Source: Anaerolineae bacterium
Lineage (GTDB): Bacteria > Chloroflexota > Anaerolineae > Anaerolineales > UBA4823
Assembly: GCA_003130835.1 (NCBI GenBank)
Contig: QEXX01000081.1
Location: 4,467 to 68,466, forward strand
Direction: 5' to 3'
Length of the DNA stretch: 64,000 nt
The notes beneath the pieces are model-generated. The model searched no databases. It was not told where the DNA came from and saw only the letters and a list, made by a program, of their open reading frames with translations. This document shows positions 798 through 9,449 of the stretch, piece after piece; position 1 is the stretch's first letter; each line of letters begins with the position of its first letter. The position numbers were made by a program, and so were the translations under genes.

Positions 798-1277
798 ATG
801 CCCAGAGTTGCTCTAAACACCCCAGCACCTGACTTTACCCTGCCTGACTTCAACGGTAAGACAATCAAGCTGTCCGATTTTCGCGGCAGAGCGCATGTCT
901 TGTTGGTTTTCAATCGCGGCTTTGTCTGACCGTTCTGCCAGCGGCACATGGCGCAGTTGCGCCAGGACTATGCTCAATTCCAACAGCGCGGCGCAGAGAT
1001 TATCGTTGTCGGGCCGGAAAACGCCCGCGCTTTTGCAGACTACTGGCAAAAACAAGCCTTGCCCTTCATCGGCTTGCCCGACCCCAAAGCTAGCGTGTTG
1101 AAGCTCTATGGGCAGGAGGTCAATCTGTTCAAATTAGGGCGCATGCCGGCTCAAGTGATTGTCGATCGAGAGGGTTTGGCCCGCTTTGTTCACTACGGAC
1201 ACAGCATGGCAGACATCCCTGCAAACGAGGAACTGCTCGAGTTGCTTGACCAGTTAAATCAAACGGCAACGGCATAA
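798..1277 (+). CDS. peroxiredoxin-like (AhpC/TSA, redoxin) protein with UxxC motif; probable selenoprotein
   Basis: RBS AGGAGG then ATG 798; reads [43 protein letters not shown]-(TGA 927-929)-PFCQRHMAQ..., in frame with ORF 948..1277; hairpin TGGCGC-AGTT-GCGCCA at 949-964. Confidence 0.88.
949..964 (+). promoter_or_regulatory. candidate bacterial SECIS hairpin
   Basis: 6-bp stem TGGCGC/GCGCCA, loop AGTT (G at loop position 2), loop starts 25 nt after the in-frame TGA. Confidence 0.6.
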
Positions 1278-8672: not shown

Positions 8673-9449
8673 ATGGCGTTATCCGTTGGGCAACTGGCAC
8701 CCGACTTTACTCTGTTCGACCAGCGCAAGCGCCCGGTCTCTCTGAGCGACTTTCGCGGGCGCAAGAATGTGGTCTTGGCTTTCTTCCCGCTGGCTTGGAC
8801 ACCAATATGAAGCAGCCAAATCCCATCCTATCAGGCGGCGCTCGACCGCTTTGAGCGGATGGATACCCAGGTTCTGGGTATTAGTGTGGACAGCAGCGAT
8901 TGTCTCTATGCTTGGGCGGAAAGCCTTGGCGGGATCACCTATCCCTTGCTGAGCGATTTCTTCCCGCATGGGCGCGTGGCGCAACTGTATGGGGTGCTGC
9001 GCCCTGAAGGGTATAGCGAGCGGGCGATCTTCGTCATCGACAAACGAGGGGTGATTCGCTATGTCGATGTGCACGAAATTGACGATCAGCCAGATAATGA
9101 GGTGCTGTTTGCTGAGCTGTATAAGCTCGAGCCAGAGTTAGCCGAAAAAGATCGCCAGATTCTGCAACGCCAGCAACAAGCCGAGGCTGCCAGCGAACCC
9201 GAAGCTCCTGCAGCCGAGGTGGTCATGTATTGCACCCCGTGGTGCCCAGCTTGCCGACGGGCGCGCGCCTACTTTAATGAGAAGAAAATTCCCTTTGTGG
9301 AGATCGACATCTCACGTGACCGAACGGCGGCTGCCCAAGTGCGCCAATGGGCAAAAGGCAACGAGACCACCCCCACCTTCCTCATCAAGGGCAAGGTGAT
9401 TGTAGAGTTCCGCATCGATGAAATCGAAGCGGCGCTAAAGCAAACGTAG
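8673..9449 (+). CDS. AhpC/TSA (AhpE-like) peroxiredoxin fused to a C-terminal glutaredoxin-like domain; probable selenoprotein
   Basis: ATG 8673 reads [14 protein letters not shown]...[13 protein letters not shown]-(TGA 8808-8810)-SSQIP..., in frame with ORF 8859..9449; TGA occupies the Cys of PxxxTxxC; C-terminal YCTPWCPAC and TTPT Grx motifs. Confidence 0.9.
8823..8863 (+). promoter_or_regulatory. candidate bacterial SECIS hairpin
   Basis: CGCTC/GAGCG upper stem (8839-8843 with 8853-8857), loop starting with G 33 nt after TGA; lower stem CCATC/GATGG also possible. Confidence 0.5.

Follow-up and report, generated by a model that had tools for sequence, protein, structure and literature searches.

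The window analysed here, a stretch of 64,000 nt from the genome of an Anaerolineae bacterium (GenBank assembly GCA_003130835.1, contig QEXX01000081.1), contains on its + strand a redoxin gene that is interrupted by an in-frame TGA codon (positions 798–1277; all coordinates refer to the numbering of the window). Comparison of sequences very strongly supports the view that this region encodes one intact selenoprotein, with UGA read as selenocysteine (Sec, U). The protein is predicted to be cytoplasmic, to adopt a thioredoxin fold and to belong to the "Prx-like UxxC" kind. The elements of the gene are:

787–792, + strand: Shine-Dalgarno sequence AGGAGG, read from the sequence, 5 nt ahead of the ATG at 798.
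798–1277, + strand: predicted complete coding sequence of the 159 aa UxxC selenoprotein, with ATG at 798, Sec codon TGA at 927–929 and stop codon TAA at 1275–1277.
927–929, + strand: UGA codon 44, predicted to be read as selenocysteine U44, which opens the redox motif U-P-F-C.
936–938, + strand: codon TGC for Cys47, the putative resolving partner in UxxC, which aligns with the peroxidatic Cys of peroxiredoxins (Prx).
949–964, + strand: predicted selenocysteine insertion sequence (SECIS) hairpin, with the 5′ arm UGGCGC (949–954), the loop AGUU (955–958) and the 3′ arm GCGCCA (959–964).
948–1277, + strand: open reading frame (ORF) of 109 aa reported by gene callers that use table 11, beginning at the internal Met51; an annotation artefact and no separate gene.

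An initial annotation of the window had described a strong ribosome binding site, the ATG at 798, 43 codons, the TGA at 927–929 and P-F-C following in frame, and all of these are present in the sequence. The 43 sense codons represent the N-terminus of a redoxin, and beyond the TGA the same frame stays open up to the TAA. ORF listing with table 11 splits the frame into 798–929 (43 aa) and 948–1277 (109 aa); translation with TGA as U yields 159 residues including U44. This translation matches the Pfam family AhpC-TSA (PF00578) over residues 8–127 with 82.3 bits (gathering score 26), and this match crosses the TGA. Together with a Redoxin match of 66 bits, residues 7–135 are covered. An AlphaFold2 model based on 52 homologues consists of one confident domain (mean pLDDT 93.5, pTM 0.90), of which the 109 aa piece lacks the active site as well as strands beta1–beta3.

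We performed a six-frame search of 60 related genomes and extracted 20 orthologues. The ratio pN/pS was 0.33 for codons 2–43 and 0.27 for codons 58–155, with synonymous sites close to saturation (pS 0.75–0.79). The low pN/pS on either side of the TGA demonstrates that selection maintains both halves as protein-coding in this frame. Purine-rich boxes of the GGAG type also stand ahead of the ATG in the majority of these orthologues.

About 27 of the 60 related genomes have an orthologue with 55–87% identity and exactly one in-frame TGA. The TGA stands at the same column in all 20 extracted orthologues (64–87% identity), as codon 44 or, in one orthologue that carries a deletion, as codon 43, and the surrounding motif reads FNRGFxU-P-F/Y-C. 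One genome of each prokaryotic species was scanned, which revealed 557 confirmed relatives. The codon was examined in the best 80 of these 557 and was TGA in 80 of the 80 named genome records, which are mostly metagenome-assembled genomes of Anaerolineae, a few labelled otherwise, and include the complete genome of Leptolinea sp. HRD-7 (AP024710.1, 551102–554563). UPFC or UPYC is found in all orthologues and in all of these 80 records. Cys47 is present in 51 of 52 homologues and encoded by TGC in every one of the 20 orthologues; other residues invariant among the homologues include N39, R40, F42, H50, R115, P117 and a C-terminal HYG..M.DIP block. The conserved TGA, the selection on both sides of it and the domain match across it support the earlier claim of an intact 159 aa selenoenzyme that is not a pseudogene.

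The initial annotation had proposed to align the translation with TGA as U to homologues and to look for Cys at this column. The translation contains a complete AhpC/TSA domain, and Cys was indeed found at column 44 in the close homologues P0005, P0009, P0031 and P0043 and in a distant orthologue, L052. The codons are TGT in P0005 and TGC in P0031, which are true Cys forms; L052 (relative G054, contig C99, 46% identity) has the motif CPFC. Altogether, position 44 of the 51 aligned full-length database homologues is stored as W in 45, as C in 4, and as L and R in one each. For one W form, P0003, we checked the encoding contig: it has TGA at codon 44 and translates only with TGA=W. Its W thus results from calling genes with code 4 on a short contig. 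The Leu of P0019 and the Arg of P0029 are each one base away from TGA (TTA, CGA) and could be sequencing errors or inactive variants. P0031 occurs in separate JGI and ENA assemblies, beside a reverse-transcriptase gene (RVT_1) and a DsbA gene.

The genome assembly (3.45 Mb, 94% complete) was searched for the Sec machinery, as had also been suggested earlier, and all four components were detected. The scores for selA (554 bits), selB (370 bits) and selD (365 bits) are above the cut-offs, and tRNA-Sec (selC) was found with 75.5 bits and was classified by ARAGORN as tRNA-SeC with anticodon tca. The gene selD (L018, G000:C59:4576–5511), which is a known selenoprotein gene, itself has an in-frame TGA in SSCAGU-ASK, at the position of Cys17 in E. 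coli. About 30 nt past this TGA a possible hairpin, GGCGCAG-GUG-CUGCGCC, resembles the stem of the redoxin SECIS, but the minimum-energy structure calculated by RNAfold differs from it. TGA terminates 11 of the 33 long ORFs in the window and the redoxin gene itself in six orthologues, and is therefore not reassigned genome-wide. All relatives that have the TGA orthologue also have selA, and none of the seven relatives without selA has the orthologue, counts that are not independent due to shared ancestry.

The hairpin downstream of the UGA, U949-GGCGC-AGUU(955–958)-GCGCC-A964, comprises 6 bp and has G956 within its loop. The initial annotation was right in both respects, but had let the hairpin start 25 nt downstream: it is the loop that begins after 25 intervening nt, and the stem begins 19 nt past the TGA (22 nt from its U). 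A published criterion for a bacterial-type SECIS is a stem-loop just past the UGA with a small apical loop that contains a G (PMC1088965), and the small AGUU loop of the hairpin at 949–964 has this form and position. Codon usage points to selection on the RNA. Of the 53 amino-acid columns that are invariant among the 20 orthologues and have degenerate codons, no more than four are encoded uniformly (C47, TGC; A52, GCG; Q53, CAG; L54, TTG), and all four lie within 30 nt past the UGA, compared to a codon entropy of about 1.75 bits for other invariant residues with at least four synonymous codons. Arg55 is encoded by CGC in 16 and by CGT in four orthologues, which converts a G-C pair to G-U. The only further variants among the 80 best named records are GGCAC/GUGCC, GACGC/GCGUC and one A·C mismatch, so that pairing is kept or nearly kept.

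Relatives from the same taxonomic order contain three paralogous UxxC selenoprotein families with TGA, namely B (FNxGFVUPHC), C (FFVREYxUxQC) and D (FLRHLGULPC), at the loci L046–L051, L053 and L056. Their hairpin loops are at the same offset from the UGA and read AGUU(A/G), and their stems carry swapped pairs, e.g., GUCGCCC/GGGCGGC (in GUCGCCC-AGUUA-GGGCGGC) and GUGGCAC/GUGCCAC. In 17 representative sequences 89% of the cells pair, and two pairs are altered on both sides; the covariation score was reached by none of 500 shuffles, and every slid register scored lower. One orthologue, L044 (G050:C98), with the peptide UPFCRAQLARMR, has the hairpin GCGCGC-AGUUG-GCGCGC with the same loop but 9 nt nearer to the UGA; here the SECIS was apparently moved while the loop was kept. 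A hairpin is absent past column 44 in L052, the distant Cys form. The close Cys forms P0005 (L073) and P0031 (L074/L075) still have the intact hairpin ATGGCGCAGTTGCGCCA; they look like recent Sec-to-Cys conversions, and a retained hairpin is expected for a recent change from TGA to TGY. In relative G054, which harbours L052, selA is broken into two neighbouring parts that score 230 and 206 bits (G054:C6:30365–31518) and reflect either a frameshift or a pseudogene; this relative still has the family-C TGA gene L049. In another relative, G012, a family-C gene is located 3 kb from the orthologue.

In order to get an idea of the type of enzyme, the protein was compared to solved structures. In the phmmer alignments U44 coincides with the first Cys of the ResA CxxC motif and C47 with the peroxidatic Cys of 5enu and of AhpE (5c04), and in alignments with peroxiredoxins U44 occupies the position of a conserved Thr. 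In the model, helix 45–56 begins directly after U44, and the best Foldseek neighbours are Bcp1 (3drn, TM 0.85), AhpE (TM 0.79–0.80) and ResA (TM 0.82–0.85 when normalised to the target). The invariant R115 aligns one position off AhpE's catalytic Arg, the alignment being gapped at P117, and the invariant Pro117 stands where thioredoxin-fold proteins have their cis-Pro. The peroxiredoxin signature PxxxT/SxxC(U) is absent in both possible registers: with C47 as peroxidatic Cys (Cp), R40 is found at −7 and U44 at −3, and with U44 as Cp the corresponding residues are V37 and G41. No signal peptide, membrane anchor or hydrophobic leader was found, with the domain starting at residue 7–8. Considering the alignments, the protein is most likely a UxxC oxidoreductase of the thioredoxin-like type that is built on a Prx/BCP scaffold, although this assignment is less certain than its identity as a selenoprotein. 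The description as peroxiredoxin-like with a UxxC motif agrees with the AhpC/TSA domain and the motif itself; a canonical peroxiredoxin it is not, because PxxxTxxC is absent.

Could the TGA be something other than a Sec codon? The close Cys forms are one base away from TGA, which would fit an assembly or sequencing error that replaced a true TGC or TGT; the initial annotation had named an assembly error as a finding that would refute it. Such an error is excluded: run X1, which is probably the source sample, showed no difference at a depth of 59.5, an independent hot-spring metagenome (X3) covers 778–1393 with the TGA kept and no difference, and a contig from a microbial-mat metatranscriptome (X2) covers 828–1500, matches the gene without a change and extends into the DUF1295 gene downstream. 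The 20 of 20 orthologues and the 80 of 80 other assemblies with TGA agree with this. Contig X2 also makes it likely that the gene is transcribed, bearing in mind that such contigs lack direction and that metatranscriptomes may contain DNA. A nonsense mutation in a peroxiredoxin-like gene, leaving a pseudogene or two small genes from which only the 109 aa piece or nothing is made, would explain why calling with table 11 gives pieces of 43 and 109 aa, and an internal ATG (Met51) does exist. However, over 100 independent genomes retain this codon at the same column with purifying selection on both sides, the 109 aa piece is deprived of the active site and three strands, and no Shine-Dalgarno sequence precedes the ATG at 948 (936–947 is TGCCAGCGGCAC). 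We regard such a split as extremely improbable. Hardly more credible is that the UGA is read through or reassigned without Sec, be it by near-cognate Trp, Cys or Arg or by a reading like that of code 4 or code 25. The W stored at position 44 in most database homologues and the single records with L or R would be in line with this, but in the one case that was checked (P0003) the W stems from code-4 calling, TGA serves as stop codon in the window and at the end of this gene in orthologues, and the true substitutions at the column are Cys. Moreover, position 44 provides the catalytic nucleophile in a CxxC motif, and with Trp or Gly there the enzyme would be inactive. The genome also encodes the complete Sec machinery, and the hairpin is conserved.

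A further alternative accepts the selenoprotein but assigns it another activity. The protein may act as a selenoperoxidase that directly reduces H2O2 or organic hydroperoxides, either at U44 or through C47 in the Cp position of peroxiredoxins. The fold is nearest to the peroxiredoxins Bcp1, AhpE and BCP (TM 0.77–0.85), AhpC-TSA is the best Pfam family, the peroxidatic Cys is matched by C47, the invariant Arg115 falls no more than one position away from AhpE's catalytic Arg in the alignment, and selenolates react fast with peroxides. We nevertheless consider this rather unlikely, since the defining PxxxT/SxxC is missing in either register, the motif is of the thioredoxin-like CxxC type with Pro117 at the place of cis-Pro, and the window already has a canonical PxxxTxxU peroxiredoxin at 8673–9449. 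Several observations weigh against our interpretation as a Sec-decoded UxxC oxidoreductase. The hairpin is short, and the fold stability of the 64 nt region past the UGA was no better than that of shuffled sequences (z = +0.7), so that thermodynamic stability was dropped as evidence for a SECIS. Within the orthologue group the hairpin hardly varies, most of the covariation comes from the comparison of paralogues, and in that comparison conservation of the tripeptide A-Q-L in the protein is partly confounded with the RNA signal. Close Cys forms keep the hairpin, which by itself is therefore no proof of Sec decoding. Rfam gave no match in the window at 1–2500 (E ≤ 1), and a covariance model built from UGA and hairpin found only its own locus with a high score in the whole genome and no convincing second site. 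The next matches of this model (C57:3380–3416, C18:18889–18920 and C33:3451–3493) were rejected as chance, as no plausible split ORF was present. Selenium insertion at U44 is deduced from evidence at the gene level, the proposed mechanism and substrate derive only from alignment, and peroxidase activity is uncertain because PxxxTxxC is absent.

For the UxxC oxidoreductase the following mechanism can be envisaged. When a ribosome reaches the UGA at 927–929, the hairpin GGCGC-AGUU-GCGCC would recruit SelB carrying Sec-tRNA(Sec), selenocysteine would be inserted, and translation would continue to the TAA at 1275. U44 is predicted at the N-terminal end of helix alpha1, where thioredoxin and ResA have the nucleophilic first Cys of their CxxC, and C47, three residues further, would take the position of the peroxidatic Cys of peroxiredoxins. 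The selenolate of U44 might attack a disulfide, sulfenate or peroxide as its oxidised substrate, C47 would resolve the intermediate to a selenenylsulfide, and a reductant of the thioredoxin type could then regenerate the enzyme.

Proteins of this kind have been reported before. A "Prx-like protein" was among the selenoproteins in the Sargasso Sea survey (PMC1088965), "Prx-like 1" (pfam00578, UxxC) accounted for 225 selenoproteins in the GOS survey (PMC2398784), and a 2026 review of the prokaryotic selenoproteome (PMC13188914) gives a "Prx-like thiol:disulfide oxidoreductase, PF00578, UxxC/UxxU" the status "predicted with high confidence". The family has been known as one of selenoproteins since 2004–2005, and the window protein is a further member and no new kind. 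Its membership was set by the published criteria, PF00578 and UxxC, for a family whose published exemplar is WP_010940744.1; the window protein scores over the gathering score for PF00578 and has U44-P-F-C47. It shares with this family PF00578, the thioredoxin-like UxxC Sec, homologues with Cys in place of Sec, and a SECIS directly downstream whose small apical loop includes a G. It differs in that its orthologue group is dominated by Anaerolineae and almost obligately uses Sec (80 of 80 best records), carries a nearly invariant 16 nt hairpin, and is not named by any NCBIfam model.

The best NCBIfam match was NF040769 (SelL-related redox protein), with 84.1 bits over residues 9–105. The position of UxxC and the AQL/SECIS context are common to both; however, the score is below the curated cut-off of 120, only profile positions 2–99 of 173 are covered, and the C-terminal half differs. 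Membership in NF040769 was rejected on the basis of this score. The paralogue L053 of family D, with FLRHLGULPC, is a true member with 174.9 bits. With the BCP/PrxQ/AhpE peroxiredoxins, including the Sec-containing PrxU (PxxxTxxU), the window protein shares the overall fold, C47 at Cp and an invariant Arg near the catalytic Arg, but it is without the Pro and Thr of PxxxTxxC and has U44 in the Thr position. The NCBIfam models for PrxQ, BCP and PrxU gave only 25–45 bits compared to cut-offs of 140–270, and membership in the canonical peroxiredoxins was rejected since the PxxxT/SxxC(U) signature is missing. The ResA/TlpA type provided the best sequence match among solved structures (3c71 ResA, E = 4e-10), in which U44-x-x-C47 lies exactly on C-x-x-C. 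In contrast to these membrane-anchored, extracytoplasmic proteins, the window protein has no hydrophobic leader; the score for NF002854 was 52.5 (cut-off 170), and this assignment was rejected due to the lack of an N-terminal anchor or signal peptide.

To a specialist the biology is ordinary and not surprising; Prx-like UxxC proteins rank with the more abundant families of selenoproteins in metagenomic data. It is for annotation that the finding is of practical use: an orthologue group present in the genomes of more than 500 species (557 confirmed relatives) is systematically mis-annotated. The initial annotation had predicted that standard annotation misses the active site, and this is what public entries show. 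Public collections hold the group almost only in two wrong forms, a fragment without active site or a code-4 product with Trp. P0018 is exactly the 109 aa piece in a public protein collection (100% identical over 69% of the query), and the entries of close relatives are C-terminal fragments of 105–124 aa or full-length W44 products, for which code-4 calling was verified in P0003. Where fragments have been named, they are called "peroxiredoxin", "peroxiredoxin Q/BCP", "Thiol peroxidase, Bcp-type" or "hypothetical protein". Since no NCBIfam model reaches its cut-off, automatic pipelines will go on missing the family. Correct gene models would alter estimates of selenium dependence in Chloroflexota from hot springs, digesters and sediments. 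The highly conserved hairpin also represents a clean natural example of an RNA signal laid over coding sequence.

The SECIS of the Anaerolineae might be lineage-specific, unusually compact and fixed in sequence, with GGCGC, a tetraloop containing GU, and GCGCC, its loop placed 25 nt past the UGA; four paralogous UxxC families would share it at this offset, and the element in selD is similar. In addition, the orthologue group might act on a lineage-specific substrate, perhaps tied to the adjacent DUF1295 protein; this joint reading is speculative, and we consider it rather doubtful as a whole. If it were true, one ancestral selenoprotein with its SECIS would have diversified into a family of Sec redoxins, and the motif could serve as a specific recognition code for SelB, by which the rest of the Anaerolineae selenoproteome could be found.

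The gene directly downstream of the selenoprotein gene is:

1279–2061, + strand: DUF1295 membrane protein of 260 aa (Pfam PF06966, 250 bits), which starts 1 nt after the TAA.

This protein resembles steroid-5-alpha-reductase and ICMT, and its gene is probably co-transcribed with the selenoprotein gene. It is found directly downstream only within the genus (L021, L022 and L024), and an alpha/beta-hydrolase gene upstream is kept in 8 of 20 loci; both associations are too weak to deduce a function from operon context, and this approach was rejected. When 300–2400 was scanned for promoters and terminators, nothing resembling a promoter came up, and a single weak terminator-like site (2299–2315) was found, which is fewer than in shuffled sequences. 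In the intergenic region upstream of the gene (360–797, about 440 nt) neither an Rfam match nor, by a simple scan, a sigma-70-like promoter was detected. Metatranscriptome contigs cover this region of the window, 360–797.

A crude scan of the window for further ORFs split by TGA in a redox context produced many chance candidates that were not individually checked, and only one, with TGA at 8808–8810, fits a selenoprotein family seen in the genomes of relatives. This gene (8673–9449, + strand) would encode a protein of 258 aa with the canonical PxxxTxxU motif (WTPIU), which has Sec at the peroxidatic position and is fused to a C-terminal glutaredoxin-like domain with CPAC. Its NCBIfam matches, GlrX_YruB with 62 bits and PrxU with 61 bits, are all below the cut-offs. 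Orthologues with the same TGA are present in the relatives G003, G005 and G030.

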